Positions 3,221-42,268 of a stretch of 64,000 bases of DNA are shown one piece after another. Where the stretch lies: the IMG/VR virus record IMGVR_UViG_3300012347_000106, positions 4,476 through 68,475 of that record; one strand, given 5' to 3'. How positions within the stretch are numbered: the stretch's first letter is position 1; each line of letters begins with the position of its first letter. This DNA comes from a virus. The notes beneath the pieces are model-generated. The model had not been told where the DNA came from. It saw only the letters and a list, made by a program, of their open reading frames with translations, and made no database searches. A program made the position numbers and the translations under genes.

Positions 3221-4770
3221 TGACCTTCCATCATGTCGGCAATCGCCAAATCCATCAACCCGCCGGAGGCGTACCCGCGAGCGACACCGCCCTTGGCCAT
3301 CAGCTTGCTTGCGCCATAGGCTGCAGTGCCGAGACCCGCCACCTGAGATGCCGCACTGGGTGCGGCCGAGTACATAGTCTGTGTTGAGCCAGACGGCGTG
3401 CCGCGCAGCAGGTTGGATTGGAACTCCAGTTGCTGGTATGGGAACTTCTGCTGGTTCTGGAAGTCTTCGTACTGCTGGCTAAGGACGTTTTGCACCTGCT
3501 GCTGCTGCTGTGTGCCGTACGCATTCTGCAGCTTGTTGACGTCCATGGCCTGACCAAACTGCTGGCCACCAAGTGCACCCAACTGACCTGCGCCTGTGAG
3601 CGCGGTCTGCAAGCCCTGAAGGCCGAGACCTGCACCGTATTGGCGAGACTGCTCTTCGAGCTGCTGCGCGGCCTGACCGTACTGCGCTCCGGCTTGTGCA
3701 CCCGTCATTGCCTGCTGTGCAGCAAACTGGTTCGCTGCCTCTTGGGCTTGCTGGGCCGACATGCCGTACTGGGCCTGCAACTGAGCGGCGCTCAAGCCTT
3801 GACCTGCACCAAACTGACGAGACTGCTCCGCCAACTGTTGGGCGTTCAAGCCGTACTGCTGGTTTGCCAAGGCTGCCTGAAGGCCCGTCTGCGCGCCGAG
3901 CTGTTGAGTGCTCAGTTTGGAAGCCAAATTCTGCTGACCCACAGTCAGTCCAGCCTGTTGGTTGGCTTGCTGCGCCTGCAGTCGAGCGGCCTGCTCTTGG
4001 TTGAATTGCTGCTGAGCCTGCTGGTATGCGGCCTGTGAGCCTGTGGCTTGAATGTCACCAAGCTGCGTGCCGAGGTTGCGCTGGCGCTCCGCTTCGACGA
4101 TGGCCTGACGAGAGCCGCCGAACGCGCCTTGGCCTACCGCTTGTGCTTGGTTCTGATTGCGCTGAATTTCCGAGGCGCGCGTTGCTTCGCGCTGCTGCAT
4201 TCCAACAACGCTCTGCATGTACGGCGACATGTAGGCTTCTGCCGCGTTTGGCTGGGCAAACGACTGCGTGCGAACCTGCTGCGCCGGGCCCATGCCGTAC
4301 TGGTTGAGCTGCGGTGCCTGCACTTGCTGCGCGTTGAACTGCCCGGTTTCATATTGGCCCGGGGCTTGGAAGGGGTTCTGGAACTGCGATGGGTTGTACT
4401 GACCCGGAGCTTGGAACTGGTTCTGGAACTGCCCGGCATCATAACCCGTGTTGAGTGCGCGATCGGACGCTGTTGCTGCTGTTGCCGCACCCAAACCTGT
4501 TGCCGCCGAAGGCTGCATTGACCCAGCGCCTTGGAAGGCTTGCTGCTGCAGTGGCGTGAACTGCGCTGTGCGCTCACCTTGGTAGGCTTGGTACGGCGAG
4601 TTGGACAGTGCAGAGCCTTTGCCCAGCACTTCTTGCGCGTAGGGTTTGGCCCAGTCTGGCAGGTCTTGGGTCTGCGTTGTGCTAGATGGACCTCCGCCAC
4701 CGCCGCCATCCATTGGGTAGAGACGCCGGTTGTCGGCTGAGTAGCCGCTGAATTTGTTGCCGATAATCAT
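3217..4770 (-). CDS. Gln-rich low-complexity virion protein (putative internal/ejection protein)
   Basis: The ORF track gives 3217..4884. I moved the start to the in-frame ATG at 4770, which overlaps the GNAT gene stop (ATGA coupling) rather than giving a 118-nt overlap. The protein has long Q/A/G-rich repeats. Confidence 0.5.
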   Translation of the reverse strand: MIIGNKFSGYSADNRRLYPMDGGGGGGPSSTTQTQDLPDWAKPYAQEVLGKGSALSNSPYQAYQGERTAQFTPLQQQAFQGAGSMQPSAATGLGAATAATASDRALNTGYDAGQFQNQFQAPGQYNPSQFQNPFQAPGQYETGQFNAQQVQAPQLNQYGMGPAQQVRTQSFAQPNAAEAYMSPYMQSVVGMQQREATRASEIQRNQNQAQAVGQGAFGGSRQAIVEAERQRNLGTQLGDIQATGSQAAYQQAQQQFNQEQAARLQAQQANQQAGLTVGQQNLASKLSTQQLGAQTGLQAALANQQYGLNAQQLAEQSRQFGAGQGLSAAQLQAQYGMSAQQAQEAANQFAAQQAMTGAQAGAQYGQAAQQLEEQSRQYGAGLGLQGLQTALTGAGQLGALGGQQFGQAMDVNKLQNAYGTQQQQQVQNVLSQQYEDFQNQQKFPYQQLEFQSNLLRGTPSGSTQTMYSAAPSAASQVAGLGTAAYGASKLMAKGGVARGYASGGLMDLAIADMMEGQ

Positions 4771-10513: not shown

Positions 10514-11016
10514 TTCATGTCCTTGAGTTTCTGGATTTCGTCAGCTTTGTCTTTGGAGCCTTGAGAACTTCCACGGTGGAAGTTGAGCACCGTTCCGGCC
10601 AGCGTCCAAAGCGAGCCAAGAGCGGTGTAGGCCAGCGCCTTGTTGGCGTCCGGCACACCCTTGAAGAAGATGATGAACGTCATGAACAGCGCTCCACCGA
10701 CGATCATTATGTCAATGACGTACGCCACGTTTTTGGCCAAAACAGATGCAACCGAAGAGTTCTGAATCTCGGCATTCATCTTTCGGGCGCTGTCTGTGTT
10801 GGCGTTGTGCAGCTCAAACTTCTTCACGTCGATTTCCGCAAGTTTCTGAGCCGCTTGAGGGTCTGCTTGGATGGCTTGCGTGACCGCTTCAACCGTGTCC
10901 TCGACACCCAACTTCTCAGCGATTGCCTTGACCGCCATGCCACCCAAAGGGCCGGTAACAGCGGTAGCCAGCAAAGGAGCCACATTTTTAAGCAGTCCTG
11001 CAAGAACGTCATTCAT
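10510..11016 (-). CDS. holin-like membrane protein (two C-terminal transmembrane helices, charged tail)
   Basis: The ORF track gives 10510..11100. I use the start at Met29 (MNDVLAGLL), which abuts the stop of the upstream gene and has a GGGGA SD. There are two hydrophobic helices followed by a KDKADEIQKLKDMK tail. It lies immediately upstream of the endolysin. Confidence 0.5.
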   Translation of the reverse strand: MNDVLAGLLKNVAPLLATAVTGPLGGMAVKAIAEKLGVEDTVEAVTQAIQADPQAAQKLAEIDVKKFELHNANTDSARKMNAEIQNSSVASVLAKNVAYVIDIMIVGGALFMTFIIFFKGVPDANKALAYTALGSLWTLAGTVLNFHRGSSQGSKDKADEIQKLKDMK

Positions 11017-11633
11017 TAATTTCCCCTTTTGGTCAGCATGGCGCTGGCGATTTCCATCATGAATTTTACTTGCTCGGGGTTCTGGGGCGGCTCCGCCCAC
11101 CCGACCGTGATCTGCCCGACGAAGCGGTGGTTATCTGGCGGCACGCTGATCCTGCAGGTATAGGTCACACCCTTCTCGATGTACCACAGGCCGACTTCGG
11201 ACTGCGCGTACCGATACTCCGAGCACGGAATCTGGTTGGTCATCAAGGAGATCACATCGTTGTTGTTGCCGGTGTTCTGGCTGAACAGGCCGACGTCGAT
11301 GTCTTCTATGCTCTTGTCCCGCCCGTCTTTGGTGTACGCCTTGTACAGCGTCCGACTGTTGAACAGCGGGTTTACCTTGAAGACGGCAACGACCGTCGCG
11401 CCAGTCTTTTTGAACATCATTGCGCTGGCCTCGTCCGCACGGCTGGTGTTGATCTCCGGCAGCTTCTTGGACTCCCGATACGCGTCGCGCATGAACTCTT
11501 GGTTCTGCCACAGGAAATAGCCAGCAAAGGCAACCGCACCCATCACGAGAATGGCGAACAGCTTGAACGGGGAGTCCACATACCCCAGCACCTTATCGAG
11601 CGTGGAGTCGGCGTTGAGCTTCTCTTCACTCAT
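11016..11633 (-). CDS. N-terminally membrane-anchored (type II) protein in lysis cassette, function unknown
   Basis: 205 aa with a single N-terminal TM (LFAILVMGAVAFAGYFLW) and a Cys-containing globular domain. It sits in the i-spanin position but is not coiled-coil-like. Confidence 0.45.
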   Translation of the reverse strand: MSEEKLNADSTLDKVLGYVDSPFKLFAILVMGAVAFAGYFLWQNQEFMRDAYRESKKLPEINTSRADEASAMMFKKTGATVVAVFKVNPLFNSRTLYKAYTKDGRDKSIEDIDVGLFSQNTGNNNDVISLMTNQIPCSEYRYAQSEVGLWYIEKGVTYTCRISVPPDNHRFVGQITVGWAEPPQNPEQVKFMMEIASAMLTKRGN

Positions 11634-37464: not shown

Positions 37465-37944
37465 ATGAACGCAAGTTACCGACACGGACAGTCCCCACGG
37501 GGCGCACAGACCAACATCTACCGACGTTGGCAACACATGATTCAACGCTGTCATAACCCAAAGGACAGAGACTACCCCCGATATGGTGGGCGAGGTATTT
37601 CCGTATGTGATCGTTGGCGATATGCAGACGAGACGCATACTGGGTTCGAGTACTTCCTCCTCGATATGGGGCTACCACCTAGCAGGTCACACTCGATTGA
37701 CCGCAAAGAAGTGGATGGGGATTACAGCCCCGAGAATTGCCGGTGGGCTACGCCTACTGAGCAAGCCAACAACCGTCGAAGCACAAAAATGCTGACCATC
37801 GACGGCGAAACAAAACCGTTATCTGACTGGTGCAAACAATACAGCATCGGCAGTAAGACGGTACTTTACCGCCTCAAGCACAGAGGCATGACCCCTAAAG
37901 AAGCAATCACAACGCCACTTACGTGGACAAAGGAAAAATCATGA
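37465..37944 (+). CDS. putative homing-endonuclease-family DNA-binding protein (YGGRGIxVCDRW motif family)
   Basis: 159 aa. IYRRWQHMIQRCHNPKDRDYPRYGGRGISVCDRW is the signature found in stand-alone phage proteins usually annotated as HNH/homing endonucleases. AGGAG SD. Confidence 0.5.
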   Translation: MNASYRHGQSPRGAQTNIYRRWQHMIQRCHNPKDRDYPRYGGRGISVCDRWRYADETHTGFEYFLLDMGLPPSRSHSIDRKEVDGDYSPENCRWATPTEQANNRRSTKMLTIDGETKPLSDWCKQYSIGSKTVLYRLKHRGMTPKEAITTPLTWTKEKS

Positions 37945-39008
37945 GCATGTCTATCAATCTGAACCAAGCCGCCACCCTGATTCGCAATGTCGGTACGACC
38001 AATACATTGTTGCTTCGCGGCACCCCCGGCATCGGCAAATCATCCATCTTGCAGACACTCGAACGTGAACTGCCGGACTATCAAATCTGCTACATCGACG
38101 TAGCCAACCTCGACCTCGGCGATCTGGGCATGCCTGTGATCGACAAAGACACAATGGTCACCAACTACGCACCCAACGCTCGCTTCGGTGTAGGCAAGGG
38201 CCAGACACGCCCTGTCGTGCTGATGCTCGACGAGTTGGGTAAAGCGTCACGCCCTGTGCTCAACATGCTGTTGCCTGTGATTCTCGAAGGTCGCATCGGT
38301 GATGTGCCCCTGCCTACCGGCTCCATTGTGTTCGGCACAACCAACCTCGACACTGACGGCGTGGGTGACAACATCCCAGCCCATGCGTTCAACCGTATGA
38401 CTGTCGTGACTGTGGCCAACCCATCGGCCGACCAGTGGATTGACTGGGCATCGGGCCACAACGTAGCCCCCGAGGTGATGGCGTTTGCCAAGCAGTACCC
38501 GCAGGTCTTCGACTGCTATGCAGACCTCGACAAGAAAGACAAGAACCCCTACATCTTCAACCCCATGACGGGCAACGTGCGGGCCTTCTGCTCACCTCGT
38601 TCACTGGTCAAAGCATCGAACATCGTCAAGCAACGCAGTGTGCTCGGCACCTCGTTGATTCCAGCCCTCGCAGGTACTGTCGGTGAAGCCGCAGCCCGTG
38701 ACATGGAAGCCCTCGTGAATCTGGCAGATCAGTTGCCACTGTTCGAGAACATCGTGAAGGCTCCGACCAAGACCAAGGTGCCCGATAGCGTAGGTGCCCT
38801 GTTCATCCTTGCGTTCATGCTGGCAGGTCGTGTCGATGCTGACAACCTCGACCCTGTGATGGAGTACGCCGAGCGTATGTCTGCTCAGTCATTCGAGGCG
38901 CATGCCCTGTTCGTTACATCCCTTGCATCCAACCGCGCCAAGGTGGGTATGGCATGTAAGAACCGTAAGTTCACTGCCGCCGCCGCCAAGCTCGGCAAAT
39001 ACTTTTAA
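37941..39008 (+). CDS. MoxR-like AAA+ ATPase
   Basis: Walker A GTPGIGKSS, Walker B VLMLDELGK, sensor/arginine-finger region. Length and architecture fit the MoxR/CbbQ family. Confidence 0.75.
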   Translation: MSMSINLNQAATLIRNVGTTNTLLLRGTPGIGKSSILQTLERELPDYQICYIDVANLDLGDLGMPVIDKDTMVTNYAPNARFGVGKGQTRPVVLMLDELGKASRPVLNMLLPVILEGRIGDVPLPTGSIVFGTTNLDTDGVGDNIPAHAFNRMTVVTVANPSADQWIDWASGHNVAPEVMAFAKQYPQVFDCYADLDKKDKNPYIFNPMTGNVRAFCSPRSLVKASNIVKQRSVLGTSLIPALAGTVGEAAARDMEALVNLADQLPLFENIVKAPTKTKVPDSVGALFILAFMLAGRVDADNLDPVMEYAERMSAQSFEAHALFVTSLASNRAKVGMACKNRKFTAAAAKLGKYF

Positions 39009-39017
39009 GGTTAAAAG
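39002..39017. repeat. palindromic early-region motif copy
   Basis: CTTTTAAGGTTAAAAG, 14 nt before the ATG of 39031. Confidence 0.65.
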
Positions 39018-39030
39018 ATAGGAGCACATC

Positions 39031-39531
39031 ATGAAATCAAACACTGACCTGACCCCCGAGACCAAAGACATCGACCGCGCTGCGGTCGTAGCCAAGTTCC
39101 GGTCAAACCTTGCGTCCCAAATGGAGACGGCACTCGACAGTTTTAACGCAGACAAAATCGTCCGGGAAATCGTAGCCGATGCCAAACGCCAACAAGAACA
39201 ATTGGTGATGCGGGTGATCGGGCTTGACACTAGATATGGCGGAAACTGGGAGGTCGATCACTGCAACGGACGCATGAGCAACATAACCGAGTTCGTCAAT
39301 CAAACGTGCGGCCCCATGCTGCGCGAAGCCCTTGCTGAGCTAATTAAAGATGAGGTCGAAGACCTGCGGAAGAAAGTTCGACCGAAACTCAAGGCCGCTA
39401 TCGTCAAGGAGTTAAACAACAACTGGAATCGGTCTATAGACACTGCCGCCGCAGAGGTTGTTAAGTCATTGGCCGCGCAGTGCGCGGAAGAATTTAAAGC
39501 CGACTTCTCCAAGGACAACGCATCATGCTAA
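39031..39531 (+). CDS. hypothetical protein (helical)
   Basis: 166 aa, preceded by a motif copy and a GGAG SD. Confidence 0.5.
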   Translation: MKSNTDLTPETKDIDRAAVVAKFRSNLASQMETALDSFNADKIVREIVADAKRQQEQLVMRVIGLDTRYGGNWEVDHCNGRMSNITEFVNQTCGPMLREALAELIKDEVEDLRKKVRPKLKAAIVKELNNNWNRSIDTAAAEVVKSLAAQCAEEFKADFSKDNASC

Positions 39532-39695
39532 TCATCGAACAGCAATCCAACGGCCAGAACATCGTGAAGATCAAGAAGGACTGGCACCCCAACCGCATCG
39601 GCAAAGCCTATGCACCGAGCAAGAACTACGTGGACAGCCGCTTCATGGAGAAGGTGCAGAGCGCACTGCTGTCTAAGCGAGGGTCAGGCAAATGA
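39525..39695 (+). CDS. hypothetical small basic protein
   Basis: 56-aa ORF below the track cutoff, translationally coupled at both ends (ATGCTAA / AATGA). Confidence 0.35.
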   Translation: MLIIEQQSNGQNIVKIKKDWHPNRIGKAYAPSKNYVDSRFMEKVQSALLSKRGSGK

Positions 39696-39970
39696 GAGAG
39701 TTCACCAAGCATGTGATCCTTGCACTCAAGGAAGACGATTGGATCATCAATAGTCGAGCGATCAAGCACGTCAAATCGTTTCTCGTCATTGAGACCGACG
39801 GCATGCAACCTTACGAGGTGCCGTTCAAGTTCACTTGGTGGGAGCGCCGAGTAGTCGGGTACTACGTGCGCAAACTGCGCGACCGCATGCTGATGGCTAA
39901 GCTCATTGAGTACAGGCTCAACCCACGCAAACCGTCGAACTACTCACACGAAGACACGTTTCTCAAATAA
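39692..39970 (+). CDS. hypothetical protein
   Basis: 92 aa. Confidence 0.45.
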   Translation: MREFTKHVILALKEDDWIINSRAIKHVKSFLVIETDGMQPYEVPFKFTWWERRVVGYYVRKLRDRMLMAKLIEYRLNPRKPSNYSHEDTFLK

Positions 39971-39986
39971 CTTTTAACCTTAAAGG
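39971..39986. repeat. palindromic early-region motif copy (reverse orientation)
   Basis: CTTTTAACCTTAAAGG, 10 nt before the ATG of 39996. Confidence 0.65.
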
Positions 39987-39995
39987 AAATCAATC

Positions 39996-40544
39996 ATGAC
40001 CGCTAACGCTTTTGACATGGTGCGCAAAATTCGCCACCTCCCCGGTTTGCAACTCAAAGCAACCATCGACCCAACACAAATCAGCAAGCGTGTGAAGAAC
40101 GCCGCGCAGAAGATGCTGCGCTCTGGGGTACTGGTGGGTGGCTACACAAGCAAGTCTCGTATGCTGGCTGAGCAGTTGGAGTCAACCTTTGGGCAGCCGC
40201 TCGTTGGTAGTGCGACTAACTGGGGTGCGTTTATCAGAGACATGTCTATGGTGCCCAAGGCTGGACGTGACCAGTTGGTGGAACTCCTCAACGCATCACG
40301 GCTGATCGAGCATGCGGGCCATCCGAACACCACCTACATCAACCCACGATACGAACGTATGGTGGAAATCGCCAAGAACACCCGAACCGGGAAGGTTTCG
40401 TTCAACGCATACAACAGAGACATGAACATTCAGATCATGGAGTTCGTGGGTTCCCTCCGCACACCTGAGCAGGTTGCCGCACATGCGGCGCTGGCCGACA
40501 GGCTGGATGATCCGAAGCCGTTCGCCATCAACATGTACGAATAA
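39996..40544 (+). CDS. hypothetical protein
   Basis: 182 aa, preceded by a motif copy (reverse orientation) and an AAGGAAA SD. Confidence 0.5.
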   Translation: MTANAFDMVRKIRHLPGLQLKATIDPTQISKRVKNAAQKMLRSGVLVGGYTSKSRMLAEQLESTFGQPLVGSATNWGAFIRDMSMVPKAGRDQLVELLNASRLIEHAGHPNTTYINPRYERMVEIAKNTRTGKVSFNAYNRDMNIQIMEFVGSLRTPEQVAAHAALADRLDDPKPFAINMYE

Positions 40545-40560
40545 CTTTTAACCTTAAAAG
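40545..40560. repeat. palindromic early-region motif copy (reverse orientation)
   Basis: CTTTTAACCTTAAAAG after the stop of 39996..40544. Confidence 0.65.
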
Positions 40561-40586
40561 AAAGCGCAGTAGGTTATAATACTGGC

Positions 40587-41075
40587 ATGAACACATTAAC
40601 TTATGACCGATTGCGCAAAGTCCTCAACTACGACGCACACACCGGCGTGTTTACTTGGCGAACCAAACTCAGCCGAAAGGTTGTTGTTGGCCGTGAAGCT
40701 GGCACGCTAAAACCCAACGGGTATGTATCCATTCGTATCGACCAAAAAGCGTACTACGCGCATCGCCTTGCGTGGTGCTATGTGTACGGTGACTGGCCGG
40801 ACGAAGAGGTCGACCACATTGATGGGGACAAGACCAACAACTGCATAGCAAATCTCAGGCAGGCCAGCCGTAAGCAAAACATGGAAAACCGTGTTCAGCC
40901 CACTGGCGCGTCTGGGTATCGTGGAGTTTGTTGGCTGAAGGCCAACCAGAAATGGCGGGCCAGTATCGTCCATAACGGAAAAAACATCTACTTAGGATTG
41001 TTCAACACGGCGGAAGAGGCAAGCGCTATGTACCGCGATGCCGCCGCTTTCTTTCATACACACAACAGGAGTTAA
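40587..41075 (+). CDS. HNH endonuclease with C-terminal AP2 DNA-binding domain (homing endonuclease)
   Basis: HNH core (AHRLAWCYVYG...VDHIDGDKTNNCIANLRQASRKQN) plus an AP2-type domain (SGYRGVCWLKANQKWRASIVHNGKNIYLGLFNTAEEASAMYRDAA). Confidence 0.8.
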   Translation: MNTLTYDRLRKVLNYDAHTGVFTWRTKLSRKVVVGREAGTLKPNGYVSIRIDQKAYYAHRLAWCYVYGDWPDEEVDHIDGDKTNNCIANLRQASRKQNMENRVQPTGASGYRGVCWLKANQKWRASIVHNGKNIYLGLFNTAEEASAMYRDAAAFFHTHNRS

Positions 41076-41077
41076 TC

Positions 41078-42268
41078 ATGAATGTAGCTGATCGAATCAA
41101 AAAATGTCACATCGCAATAATGCAACACAAGAAGTTCTGCGCTTACTCAGGCATCCTTGCCTGTGGCAAAGTAACTGTCAACACCGATGTACCAACGGCC
41201 GCAACAGACGGCTGGAACGTCATCTACAACCCCGAGTTCATCGCTGAGCACATGCCCACTGACCCGGAACTGCGCTTCCTTGTACTGCACGAGGCAACGC
41301 ACAAAGCATACCGTCACATGGTGACATGGCGCGCACTGCACGAGGAGAACGCACGGCTTGCCAACGTGGCCGCTGACTTCTTCGTGAACCTGACACTGCA
41401 GGACACTGATGACGGTGAAGGCTTCATCAAGATGCCCAAGATCGGCGTGCCCCCTGAGTCTAAGTACCGTGGCTGGTCTGTCGCCATGATCTACGCTGAC
41501 CTCAAGAAACAGATGGACGAGCAAGAGGCAAGTGGTGGGGGTGGTAACGGCAATGGTGGCGAGAACGGTGAACTCGACGAGCACGACTGGTCGGGCAACG
41601 ATGCCAACGGTGACCCCGCCAAGGAACAGCAACAAGCTGACGAGATTCAACGCGCCATCCGTCAGGGCGAGATCATGCGCAAGAAGCTGGCAGGTAAGGG
41701 TGCTGGCCAATCGGACGGCTTGTTCGGCGACCTCATGGCCCCCGCCATCGACTGGAAGAAAGTGTTGCGCGAGTTCATCACCGAGACATGCGCAGGTCGT
41801 GACGAGTCTTCATGGCGCAAGCCCAACCGCCGCTACCTCGGCATGGACATTTACATGCCCTCGATGGTCGGCACAACTATGACGGAACTCGTGATCGGCT
41901 TCGACACATCCGGCTCGATCTTCGGTGGCAACGAGATGACACGCTTCGTGTCTGAGATCAAGACCATCATCGAGGACGTCAAGCCAAGCAAGGTGCATGT
42001 GATCTATTGGGACACACGAGTTGCAGGGCACCAGACATTCGATGACGGACAGTTCGCTGTTCAGGAACTCAAGATCAAAGGCGGTGGCGGCACAGACGGT
42101 TCTGTGCTGTTCGACTACCTGCGTGACAAGCACATCAACCCACAAGCCATCGTGCAGTTCACTGACGGCTATGTCGGTAGCTGGGGCCGCACTGACGTGC
42201 CTACGCTGTGGGCCATCACATCGGACTTGGTGGCACCGTTCGGCACATCCATCAAGGTGGAAGTATGA
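41078..42268 (+). CDS. vWA-domain protein with N-terminal HExxH metallopeptidase-like domain (DUF2201 type)
   Basis: LVLHEATH zinc-binding motif in the N-terminal domain. The C-terminal vWA/MIDAS-like region is GFDTSGS...DG. This is the typical partner of MoxR ATPases. Confidence 0.7.
   Translation: MNVADRIKKCHIAIMQHKKFCAYSGILACGKVTVNTDVPTAATDGWNVIYNPEFIAEHMPTDPELRFLVLHEATHKAYRHMVTWRALHEENARLANVAADFFVNLTLQDTDDGEGFIKMPKIGVPPESKYRGWSVAMIYADLKKQMDEQEASGGGGNGNGGENGELDEHDWSGNDANGDPAKEQQQADEIQRAIRQGEIMRKKLAGKGAGQSDGLFGDLMAPAIDWKKVLREFITETCAGRDESSWRKPNRRYLGMDIYMPSMVGTTMTELVIGFDTSGSIFGGNEMTRFVSEIKTIIEDVKPSKVHVIYWDTRVAGHQTFDDGQFAVQELKIKGGGGTDGSVLFDYLRDKHINPQAIVQFTDGYVGSWGRTDVPTLWAITSDLVAPFGTSIKVEV

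Follow-up and report, generated by a model that had tools for sequence, protein, structure and literature searches.

A conserved phage ATPase/DUF2201 gene pair encloses a variable slot with two candidate partner genes

Introduction

Two phage genes expected to work as a pair can lie far apart, which raises the question of whether the genes between them belong to the same module. We analyzed a stretch of 64,000 nucleotides (positions 4,476 to 68,475 of IMG/VR record IMGVR_UViG_3300012347_000106), called the window here. The initial annotation of this DNA placed a MoxR-like ATPase and a partner protein with peptidase-like and vWA domains about 2 kb apart, and proposed that the intervening genes are either unrecognized components or insertions. 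RavA-ViaA, CbbQ-CbbO, NorQ-NorD, CoxD-CoxE, and midasin/Rea1 all join, as here, an AAA+ ATPase of the MoxR/dynein/midasin clade to a vWA adaptor with a MIDAS. In the cellular systems the adaptor grips an acidic residue of its client, and the MIDAS residues are intact in the window protein. Unlike these systems, the window's vWA protein bears a zincin peptidase domain, and the two genes are usually not adjacent.

Gene layout and the two enzymes

All eight ORFs of the region, including every one placed there by the initial annotation, are present on the + strand. The features are as follows:

37465..37944, + strand: HNH1 homing endonuclease, 159 aa, just before the ATPase, whose start it overlaps by 4 nt (ATGA)
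37941..39008, + strand: MoxR/midasin-clade AAA+ ATPase, 355 aa, a core gene of the N4 gp24 type that comes first in the module
39002..39017, no strand: 16-bp palindromic motif CTTTTAAGGTTAAAAG, exact, running over the ATPase stop codon and marking the first cassette boundary
39031..39531, + strand: s166, 166 aa, acidic, largely helical, with the invariant loop G-x3-R-x(4-6)-WEVDHCNGR
39525..39695, + strand: s56, 56 aa, basic (pI 10.2), with the motif MLIIE..SNG..V.IKKDWHP.RI
39692..39970, + strand: s92, 92 aa, basic, sporadic accessory gene
39971..39986, no strand: motif copy (CC orientation) before s182, forming the left repeat of its cassette
39996..40544, + strand: s182, 182 aa, basic alpha/beta; frequent, dispensable, and fast-evolving, directly upstream of DUF2201 in the common layout of relatives
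40545..40560, no strand: motif copy after s182, forming the right repeat of its cassette
40587..41075, + strand: HNH-AP2 homing endonuclease, 162 aa, between the palindromic motif and the DUF2201 ribosome-binding site
41078..42268, + strand: DUF2201 protein, 396 aa, the second core gene, N4 gp25 type

The four small ORFs and the HNH-AP2 gene do separate the pair by ~2.07 kb, as first annotated (2072 bp between tblastn matches and 2069 bp from stop codon to ATG). Packing is tight, with overlaps of 7 and 4 nt and spacers of 2 to 42 nt.

The ATPase length assumes the ATG start, with a further open GTG at 37923. The protein matched phrog_1297 ('ATPase') at 5e-52 and, in contrast to the cellular MoxR proteins, fell just under the Pfam gathering scores (AAA, 20.9 vs 21.2; AAA_5, 19.7 vs 22). 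Its family profile matched the AAA module of midasin, the best solved structure, at 4e-22 and MoxR-like 2r44 at 1e-5. Walker A K33, Walker B D97-E98, sensor-1 N135, Arg finger R152, and sensor-2 R220 are invariant and, judged by its motifs, the ATPase has the full AAA+ catalytic set. The DUF2201 protein combines an N-terminal HExxHxxxxH zincin-like domain with a C-terminal vWA domain whose MIDAS is complete, which upholds the initial description of both enzymes. Its matches to DUF2201_N (PF13203; 107 bits, 1.7e-30) and DUF2201 (PF09967; 68 bits, 8.5e-19) are over the Pfam cut-offs, and H71, H75, H80, D276-x-S278-x-S280, T339, and D363 are invariant across seven divergent phages. Littlefix gp75 is without the catalytic Glu of HExxH. 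Since at least this one lineage lacks the residue, proteolysis cannot be the universal function. Both enzyme genes are under strong purifying selection (dN/dS of 0.06-0.14 for the ATPase and 0.09-0.18 for DUF2201).

The pair in other phages

The pair was already known. N4 gp24 and gp25 (Schitoviridae) are 2 of the 14 core genes of N4-like phages and belong to the middle transcripts (PMC4193335). They resemble the window pair in both protein families, in order and strand, and in being early or middle genes near replication functions, although identity is only 22-29%. The window genome is not N4-like: one ORF of 1429 aa, though unannotated, has the usual size of a tape-measure gene, and no giant virion RNA polymerase was seen in the window. 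A MoxR and peptidase-vWA pair is also recognized in jumbo phages (PMC7824862). In those of group 2.2 (Iyer et al. 2021, PMC7824862), a MoxR ATPase likewise partners a vWA protein fused to an N-terminal metallopeptidase, and PA5oct and Bacillus G have homologs of the pair.

Virion assembly has been suggested for the jumbo-phage pair by analogy with the MoxR-vWA of the ATV tail (PMC7824862), and chaperoning of maturation is the general role of MoxR-vWA systems (PMC7159879). We consider it unlikely that the pair, with its small partners, folds, assembles, and proteolytically processes structural proteins here. While the proposal concerned a two-gene pair, the window has additional conserved small genes as candidate partners and an early/replication context. 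Its module lies in a + strand block with DNA polymerase, helicase, and primase, outside the - strand structural block. Likewise, the middle transcripts of the N4 pair lie beside nucleotide-metabolism and replication genes, and in Littlefix, PS28, and D505 the module adjoins helicase and polymerase genes. The ternary VMAP conflict systems (Kaur et al. 2020, PMC7159879) also have a MoxR-vWA core with a dedicated third protein and variable effectors. However, they are bacterial defense systems of multicellular prokaryotes, whereas the window is from a lytic-type phage, no PADLOC match was found, and nothing in the analysis linked s166 or s56 to VMAP.

The gap between the enzymes

It had been assumed in the initial annotation that MoxR genes normally sit directly beside their partners. 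This is false for phages: the ATPase–DUF2201 gap ranged from 42 to 2130 bp across 57 related metagenomic loci, and isolates have from 0 to 9 or more genes between the pair. The two genes are adjacent in Pokken and Vibrio D505 and 167 bp apart in N4. One gene separates them in Littlefix and PS28, two in RG-2014 and JWAlpha, a single homing endonuclease gene (HEG) in CB7, four genes in PA5oct, at least seven in pVa5, and nine in Bacillus G. The slot is variable within N4-like phages too, with 0 to 7 or more genes. The opposite possibility, that the pair is normally unlinked in phages, is not borne out either. In the neighborhood survey the two genes were linked, co-directional, and in the same order in every case, mostly with a separation.

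Slots of different lineages contain small genes without detectable mutual similarity, and the s56, s182, and s166 families were not found in N4-like isolates. Loci of the window's own clade most often read ATPase-s56-s182-DUF2201, to which the window adds s166, s92, and HNH-AP2, with a second HNH gene before the ATPase. When slot genes were clustered, s56 was near-universal, s182 was in 39 of the 57 loci, and the remainder were sporadic.

These distributions bear on whether s166, s56, s92, and s182 are all obligatory subunits or substrates of a six-component machine in which the HEG alone is foreign. The small genes are co-directional and tightly packed or overlapping, and three of them, s56, s182, and s166, are found in the slot repeatedly. 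Values of dN/dS were below 1 in all four genes tested (ATPase, s56, s182, and DUF2201), indicating that s56 and s182 encode real proteins. Nevertheless, such a machine is highly improbable. Minimal loci have s56 alone between the enzymes (L025, L033, L036, L053, and L071), and the more distant L064 and L065 have nothing. The s92 gene is confined to a handful of loci (L004, L005, L029, and L103-L105, with a weak relative in L099), s166 is absent from the 69 IMG/VR relatives, and s182 is missing from L103 even though the s166 of L103 is 98% identical. An obligatory six-component machine is contradicted by this presence and absence among close relatives.

Mobile and variable genes of the slot

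The HNH-AP2 protein matched HNH_3 over the cut-off (63.6 bits, 1.3e-17), AP2 just under it (30.2 bits against 33.3; 5.6e-7), and phrog_99 at 1e-63. Its gene is missing at this site in L004, L005, L007, L009, and L012. In L020 it precedes the ATPase gene; in L035, L041, L091, and L099 it falls between the ATPase and s56 genes, and in L059 and L070 it is at yet other positions. HNH1, which matched phrog_3377 at 9e-51, is a mobile insertion. It is absent at this site in L103, whose homology to the window begins at 37930, and its homologs in relatives are in other places on the opposite strand. The initial annotation did not mention HNH1. Together, the two HNH endonucleases, s92, and s182 make up the variable cargo, present or absent among close relatives. 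The s182 model had no informative structural neighbor.

The palindromic motif has ~15 distinct sites in the window, compared to 0.12 expected. The copy at the ATPase stop codon is kept in place in L004, L005, L007, L009, L010, and L012, with variable content straight after it. In relatives without the HEG, the copy after s182 directly precedes the DUF2201 ribosome-binding site. Window positions 39968-39984 and 40542-40558 both align to a single copy at L103 6648-6664, and the s182 indel ends exactly at this 17-bp repeat, a piece of the 16-bp motif. Motif copies mark cassette boundaries, with at least one gain or loss (s182) exactly between two copies; the basis for a motif-mediated mechanism is this one exactly mapped indel.

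Arbiol, Comeau and Krisch are said to have described in 2010 mobile regulatory cassettes, ORFs flanked by PeSLs, in the hyperplastic regions of T4-type phages. The window is similar in having a short, repeated, regulatory-looking motif that flanks small variable ORFs, with indels between copies. It differs in that the motif is a palindrome and not a promoter plus stem-loop, with a single indel mapped.

s56 and s166 as candidate partners

Another explanation is that none of the intervening genes is related to the pair and that the slot is a permissive, well-expressed insertion site, as in the T4-type regions, with the associations of s56 and s166 due to inheritance and hot-spot reuse. Slot contents that differ and are unrelated between lineages, repeated HEG invasion, and the motif-bounded indel all agree with this, as do the limitation of s56 to one clade and the divergent s166-like genes in other contexts. 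We regard it as possible but doubtful on account of how s56 and s166 are distributed.

While other slot genes turn over, s56 is kept between both enzymes in all but one of ~55 clade loci (dN/dS of 0.15-0.53). The family forms 49 clusters in a set of 5.8 billion proteins. Its profile matched 42 of 1.84 billion representatives, 40 of them stand-alone proteins of 45-90 aa; the two weakest matches (E of 1.3e-4 and 2.2e-4) are short stretches in 1645- and 1926-aa proteins, and no fusion proteins are evident among the 42. The s56 family is narrow, made up of stand-alone proteins from one clade. Its conservation could stem from vertical inheritance of closely packed operon genes, with no physical partnership behind it.

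No family was found for s166 in Pfam, PHROG, NCBIfam, or PADLOC. Five close homologs exist, and in all three whose contigs were read (P0175, P0177, and P0178) the gene is between the ATPase and s56. Metagenomes were scanned with the s166 motif, without the enzymes as query. The scan gave 36 loci, 12 of which have the ATPase and/or DUF2201 within ~1.8 kb; among loci with at least 3 kb on each side, 8 are linked to the enzymes and 3 are not. Distant homologs adjoin the ATPase/DUF2201 genes in ~8 divergent lineages and at least five gene orders (atp-x-s166-duf, atp-duf-s166, s166-atp-duf, duf-s166, and s166-x-atp), some outside the slot, upstream of the ATPase or downstream of DUF2201. Between the linked groups, DUF2201 identity is 21-43% and that of the enzymes 21-45%. 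Hot-spot reuse does not account for s166 in this number of lineages and orders, including the positions outside the slot. More divergent s166-like genes lie beside radical SAM, epimerase, YqaJ, and DUF932 genes, unrelated contexts which mean that the family is not exclusive to the module.

The slot contents are mixed: mobile or variable cargo, a clade-wide s56, and a cross-lineage recurrent s166. Both readings in the initial annotation were partly right, components being favored for s56 and s166 and insertions for HNH-AP2, s92, and s182.

What the module may do

We think it fairly probable that this is a conserved two-enzyme phage operon whose internal space is a variable slot, and that s56 and the s166 family stay with the pair as candidate partners. 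The ATPase hexamer and the vWA-peptidase would probably form an ATP-driven remodeling and cleavage machine that is expressed early or mid-infection and acts on whatever protein the MIDAS site captures. In this operon s56 and s166, and possibly s182, may serve as accessory adaptors, regulators, or substrates, and the invariant acidic loop WEVDHCNGR of s166 is a plausible MIDAS ligand. The remaining slot genes would be unrelated cargo exploiting the operon's expression. In the window, a slot where small genes and homing endonucleases come and go separates the two members of a known but functionally unexplained enzyme pair. Two of the slot genes, s56 and s166, recur beside the pair in other phages and are candidates for new partners of it.

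Gene layout of the ATPase-DUF2201 module

Eight co-directional ORFs lie on the + strand at 37465-42268, and their junctions are either 4-7 nt overlaps or 2-42 nt spacers. Locating these ORFs confirmed the arrangement reported in the initial annotation, in which an ATPase and a DUF2201 protein are separated by small ORFs and an HNH-AP2 endonuclease. A second HNH endonuclease (HNH1, 159 aa), which had not been mentioned, lies directly 5' of the ATPase, the two genes overlapping by ATGA. The small proteins are named by their length in amino acids, and the gene space between the two enzymes is called the slot.

Genes of the module
37465-37944, + strand, HNH1, HNH endonuclease (phrog_3377 at 9e-51)
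37941-39008, + strand, ATPase (phrog_1297 at 5e-52)
39031-39531, + strand, s166
39525-39695, + strand, s56
39692-39970, + strand, s92
39996-40544, + strand, s182
40587-41075, + strand, HNH-AP2 endonuclease (HNH_3, phrog_99)
41078-42268, + strand, DUF2201 protein (DUF2201_N and DUF2201 in Pfam)

The module is part of a + strand early/replication block, which further along carries DNA polymerase, helicase, and primase-helicase. We infer that the facing - strand block, in which one ORF (1429 aa) has the size of a tape-measure gene, is the structural block. A scan for sigma-70 promoters and intrinsic terminators gave no enrichment in the interval, and no near-identical DNA was found among isolate phages. 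A 231-aa ORF at 50045-50740 matches phrog_20323, "RF-1 domain peptide chain release factor" (1.2e-14, residues 103-160), and may carry a phage ArfB/ICT1-like peptidyl-tRNA hydrolase domain. Among 185,579 species genomes, the sole relative of the window's DUF2201 protein (70% identity) is on L147, a 3.3-kb contig in a MAG of Fluviibacter sp., a freshwater betaproteobacterium bin. One s56 homologue likewise comes from a MAG labelled "Betaproteobacteria bacterium". Together, these are a weak hint of a betaproteobacterial host group.

Catalytic residues of the two enzymes

The DUF2201 protein scored above both Pfam gathering scores (PF13203, 107 versus 23.2 bits; PF09967, 68.3 versus 26.4 bits). 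A search of solved structures returned weak vWA matches and none beyond these. The zincin metal site of the window protein reads LHEATHKAYRH (HExxH). In an alignment of divergent phages, H71, H75, and H80 (HxxH...H) were invariant, as was a complete MIDAS consisting of D276, S278, S280, T339, and D363 (DxSxS, T, D). E72, present in the window, was absent from Littlefix gp75. In that protein (L001 6547-7773), the motif is AHLAMH, with Leu in place of the catalytic Glu, and all three His residues and the MIDAS are retained. The Littlefix lineage thus seems to have a protein that is conserved apart from a loss of proteolytic activity. Since the catalytic Glu is lost in Littlefix, remodelling, rather than proteolysis, may be the common denominator.

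The ATPase alignment comprised eight divergent phage homologues, among them those of Littlefix, CB7, PA5oct, N4, and metagenomic relatives. Walker A K33, Walker B D97-E98, sensor 1 N135, the Arg finger R152, and sensor 2 R220 were all invariant, and sensor 2 is a MoxR-like SPR motif. When solved structures were searched with the ATPase profile A4, a midasin AAA module (4e-22) and the MoxR-like 2r44 (1e-5) were matched, and matches to Clp/Hsp104 and NtrC were much weaker than these. The ATPase thus shares with the MoxR-dynein-midasin clade its catalytic motifs, its closest solved relatives, and a vWA/MIDAS genomic partner, although its AAA_5 score (PF07728) is under the gathering cut-off, at 19.7 versus 22 bits. 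The score for AAA (PF00004) is also below its cut-off (20.9 versus 21.2 bits).

With tblastn, relatives were found in 792 isolate phage records for the DUF2201 protein and in 499 for the ATPase, all at <31% identity. The isolates include N4-like phages, Vequintavirinae, PA5oct-like jumbo phages, and Bacillus phage G.

The enzyme pair is linked but usually split

IMG/VR was scanned with the window's DUF2201 protein, which gave 69 loci at 62-94% identity and two at about 37%. Scans seeded with N4 gp25 and with the locus L064 gave few loci. When the window proteins were mapped onto the IMG/VR loci, the order and strand of the ATPase and DUF2201 genes were constant. The gap between them, determined at 57 loci, spanned 42-2130 bp and was most often close to 900 bp; only one gap exceeds the roughly 2.07 kb of the window. 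In all the DNA examined that held both genes, from these 57 loci of relatives and roughly a dozen isolate lineages, the pair was linked and co-directional. Phage pVa5 was the sole isolate with the partner gene outside the 3.4 kb read.

Genes between ATPase and DUF2201 in isolate phages
Pokken: adjacent
Vibrio D505: adjacent
N4: 167-bp gap
Littlefix: 1 gene
PS28: 1 gene
RG-2014: 2 genes
JWAlpha: 2 genes
CB7: 1 HNH gene, kin to the window's HNH-AP2
PA5oct: 3 small membrane proteins and a homing endonuclease
pVa5: at least 7 genes
Bacillus G: 9 genes

This survey of relatives and isolates indicates that the pair is linked but usually split. The expectation that the two genes normally sit side by side is therefore wrong for phages, in which the gap mostly holds other genes (0 to 9 or more in isolates). 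The view that only adjoining MoxR and vWA genes can be partners is corrected by this work.

The 167-bp gap between gp24 and gp25 of N4 (L074 2951/2984-3163; record about 10950-11162) contains an unannotated ORF of 59-70 aa, which ends in TGAtATG at the gp25 start. It was considered as an s56 equivalent and rejected, since the two share no similarity and since L076-L078, in which gp25 is 63% identical, lack the gap altogether.

s56 is found almost clade-wide and s182 is variable

All + strand ORFs from the 57 gaps were clustered to describe the slot gene content. The s56 family was present in every locus of the clade formed by the window's close relatives except one (L046), with M1, L2, E5, N9, G10, K17, W20, R24, Y29, Q45, and L49 invariant. 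The minimal layout, ATPase-s56-DUF2201, was seen in L025, L033, L036, L053, and L071. Gene calling has picked up s56 in 49 protein clusters, and every contig returned by s56-seeded scans also has the pair. When 1.84 billion representatives were searched with the s56 profile, 42 hits were obtained, 40 of them stand-alone proteins of 45-90 aa. On this basis, we rejected the possibility that s56 derives from a larger protein as a detached domain; the two weakest hits were short matches in much longer proteins and were regarded as spurious.

The s182 family was found in 39 of the 57 loci, invariably directly 5' of DUF2201, and the commonest layout in the clade is ATPase-s56-s182-DUF2201. This family evolves fast, with 21-56% identity where the enzymes have 70-94% and a dN/dS of about 0.33 versus about 0.1 for the enzymes. 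s182 is missing from very close relatives, namely L004 and L103, the latter with an s166 that is 98% identical. AF2 gave a confident model of s182 (pLDDT 90), and comparison of this model with the PDB gave no informative neighbour. s92 was found at a few loci only.

The slot of L099 (4402-9159) is more expanded than that of the window, with eight intervening genes over 2.5 kb. The order is ATPase, HNH-AP2, s166-like, 78 aa, 56 aa, s56-like (55 aa), s92-like (106 aa), s182-like (187 aa), DUF2201.

None of s166, s56, s92, and s182 matched a significant family in Pfam, PHROG, NCBIfam, or PADLOC. All that the family searches gave was a GP46 hit under the threshold and weak hits to phrog_3806 for two s166 relatives. 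We also considered that slot genes of different lineages might be cryptic homologues, and rejected this since phmmer gave no support.

The s166 family recurs beside the pair in distant lineages

s166 was absent from all 69 IMG/VR relatives of the window. Its only IMG/VR relative, at 34% identity, is in a distant AT-rich phage (L073), where it likewise lies between the ATPase and DUF2201 genes. Only five close homologues were found in 5.8 billion proteins; contigs were read for three of these, and all three place the gene between ATPase and s56. No relatives of s166 were found in isolate phages by tblastn or in the 185,579 species genomes.

A metagenome scan seeded with the s166 motif [WF]EVDHCNG alone returned 36 loci. 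In 12 of them, local profile searches located the ATPase, DUF2201, or both at distances from s166 of up to about 1.8 kb, in several gene orders.

Gene order at s166 loci with ATPase (atp) and/or DUF2201 (duf) nearby
atp-x-s166-duf: L115, L117, L123, L124, L113
atp-duf-s166: L111, L112
atp-duf-...-s166: L114
s166-atp-duf: L120
duf-s166: L126, L121
s166-x-atp: L128

DUF2201 identity between these arrangement groups is 21-43%, which indicates about eight independent lineages when the window's clade is included. Of the s166 loci flanked on each side by 3 kb or more, eight were linked to the pair and three were unlinked. More divergent s166-like genes were found in unrelated contexts. Proximity that is kept despite shuffled gene order is a classical signature of functional coupling. 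Judged by gene order, the proximity of s166 to the pair reads as functional coupling, and reuse of a single insertion hot spot cannot explain it.

Within the AT-rich lineage (L115, L117, L123, L124, L113, and L073), the ATPase and DUF2201 proteins are 90-95% identical and the s166-family proteins 49-67%. s166, like s182, is therefore faster-evolving than the enzymes, and its divergence here points to relaxed or diversifying selection on a small partner. AF2 gave a pLDDT of 48 for s166 with a shallow alignment. Its secondary structure, predicted at low confidence, has long helices flanking an invariant loop, G-x3-R-x(4-6)-WEVDHCNGR.

Homing endonucleases and a repeated palindrome in the slot

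The HNH catalytic domain of HNH-AP2, at 40587-41075, was clearly recognized (HNH_3, 63.6 bits; phrog_99, 1e-63), and its Pfam AP2 match was slightly under the cut-off. HNH-AP2 is absent at this site in L004, L005, L007, L009, and L012, and its gene occupies at least four different positions among relatives. HNH1 is absent at its window position in the close relative L103. Both genes show the presence/absence polymorphism at an intergenic site beside a conserved gene that marks homing endonuclease genes (HEGs). Each of the two conserved enzyme genes has its own HEG immediately 5'. The ATPase-DUF2201 gap is a hot spot both for homing endonucleases and for cassettes flanked by a repeated motif.

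This hot spot beside DUF2201 has consequences for annotation. The wrong label "HNH endonuclease" is widespread for DUF2201 proteins in PHROGs (phrog_1314) and RefSeq, including NC_008720 (N4 gp25), NC_048697 (Littlefix gp75), NC_071039 (PA5oct gp144), NC_023719 (Bacillus G gp576), and others. In these proteins, Pfam finds no HNH domain, only DUF2201_N and DUF2201. The HEGs that so frequently adjoin DUF2201 genes are the probable source of the label.

The motif is a 16-bp AT-rich palindrome, CTTTTAAGGTTAAAAG, with 7-bp arms and a central GG or CC. In the window it has 28 strand matches at about 15 distinct sites, compared to 0.12 expected. The sites are confined to the + strand early block at 32640-53459 and are all intergenic or at gene ends, often 3-30 nt 5' of a start codon.

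Palindrome sites in the window
32640, 33475, 33715, 34605, 35203, 35827, 36361, 37391, 39002, 39971, 40545, 42498, 44837, 47547, 53444

Three copies are in the interval, at the ATPase stop codon (39002), before s182 (39971), and after s182 (40545). Close relatives conserve the palindrome at the ATPase stop and just 5' of DUF2201, and their variable slot content starts directly after the first copy. The HEG is inserted after the last copy and before the ribosome-binding site of DUF2201. In an alignment, the window copies flanking s182 collapse to one in L103. This change from two copies to one indicates that the s182 cassette is an indel between direct repeats of TAACTTTTAACCTTAAA; it is the one case of a motif-bounded indel that was mapped. 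There are 10-15 copies per locus in close relatives, and in more distant ones the copies are diverged or there are none. An over-represented intergenic motif and a motif-bounded indel (one mapped) are features shared with PeSL-like motif-flanked mobile cassettes. The palindrome probably serves in regulation, perhaps as an operator, and as a boundary of recombination, and the symmetry of 7-bp arms around a 2-nt centre suggests that it could be a protein-binding site.

Discussion

A conserved, co-directional enzyme pair with intact catalytic residues encloses an exchangeable slot, and two small-protein families stay with the pair. The pair itself was already known. N4-like phages have 14 core genes, of which N4 gp24 and gp25 are two, both on middle transcripts (PMC4193335); these two are listed without an assigned function (PMC4193335; PMC2784036). 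A MoxR and metallopeptidase-vWA pair has been described in jumbo phages, with a proposed role in virion assembly and processing (Iyer et al. 2021, PMC7824862). We found genome descriptions and comparative genomics in the literature, and no functional studies of DUF2201 or gp24/gp25. The new elements are the architecture of the slot, the clade-wide presence of s56 as a component, and, foremost, the s166 family as a recurrent partner.

The initial annotation had left it open whether the intervening genes are components of the module or insertions, and each reading holds for some of them. s56, which is clade-wide, and s166, which is recurrent, fit components; the HEGs, s92, and s182, which are absent in relatives, fit insertions. 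Unlike the vWA-MoxR ternary (VMAP) conflict systems, the module has no recognised third component, and neither Pfam nor NCBIfam assigned its small proteins to a family. For the six module proteins, PADLOC gave no significant match to a VMAP third component or defence profile.

By analogy with RavA-ViaA, CbbQ-CbbO, NorQ-NorD, and midasin, the vWA MIDAS would hold an acidic residue of a client, and the AAA+ ring would provide force on it, as in MoxR-vWA systems (PMC7159879). Cleavage of the client could fall to the fused zincin domain. s56, s166, and possibly s182 are proposed to act as adaptors, regulators, or substrates, and the acidic invariant loop of s166 is, speculatively, a candidate MIDAS ligand. 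The early/replication context argues for host or replication-associated clients rather than virion proteins. In its fullest form, this proposal is a retargetable early machine that would dismantle or cleave host proteins for take-over or counter-defence, with specificity or regulation supplied by fast-evolving small proteins from the exchangeable slot, s56 and s182 in this clade and the s166 family in many lineages, and with the s166 loop docked in the MIDAS. We regard this complete version as unlikely. If it were true, the slot would be a specificity cassette, analogous to adaptor-directed AAA+ proteases.

Few genes are universally conserved in N4-like phages, and the gp24/gp25-type pair is among them; it is also present in hundreds of other phages. 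For this pair, there are now two experimental handles: the s166 family (WEVDHCNGR), which is found with the pair across distant lineages, and s56, which is fixed in one clade.
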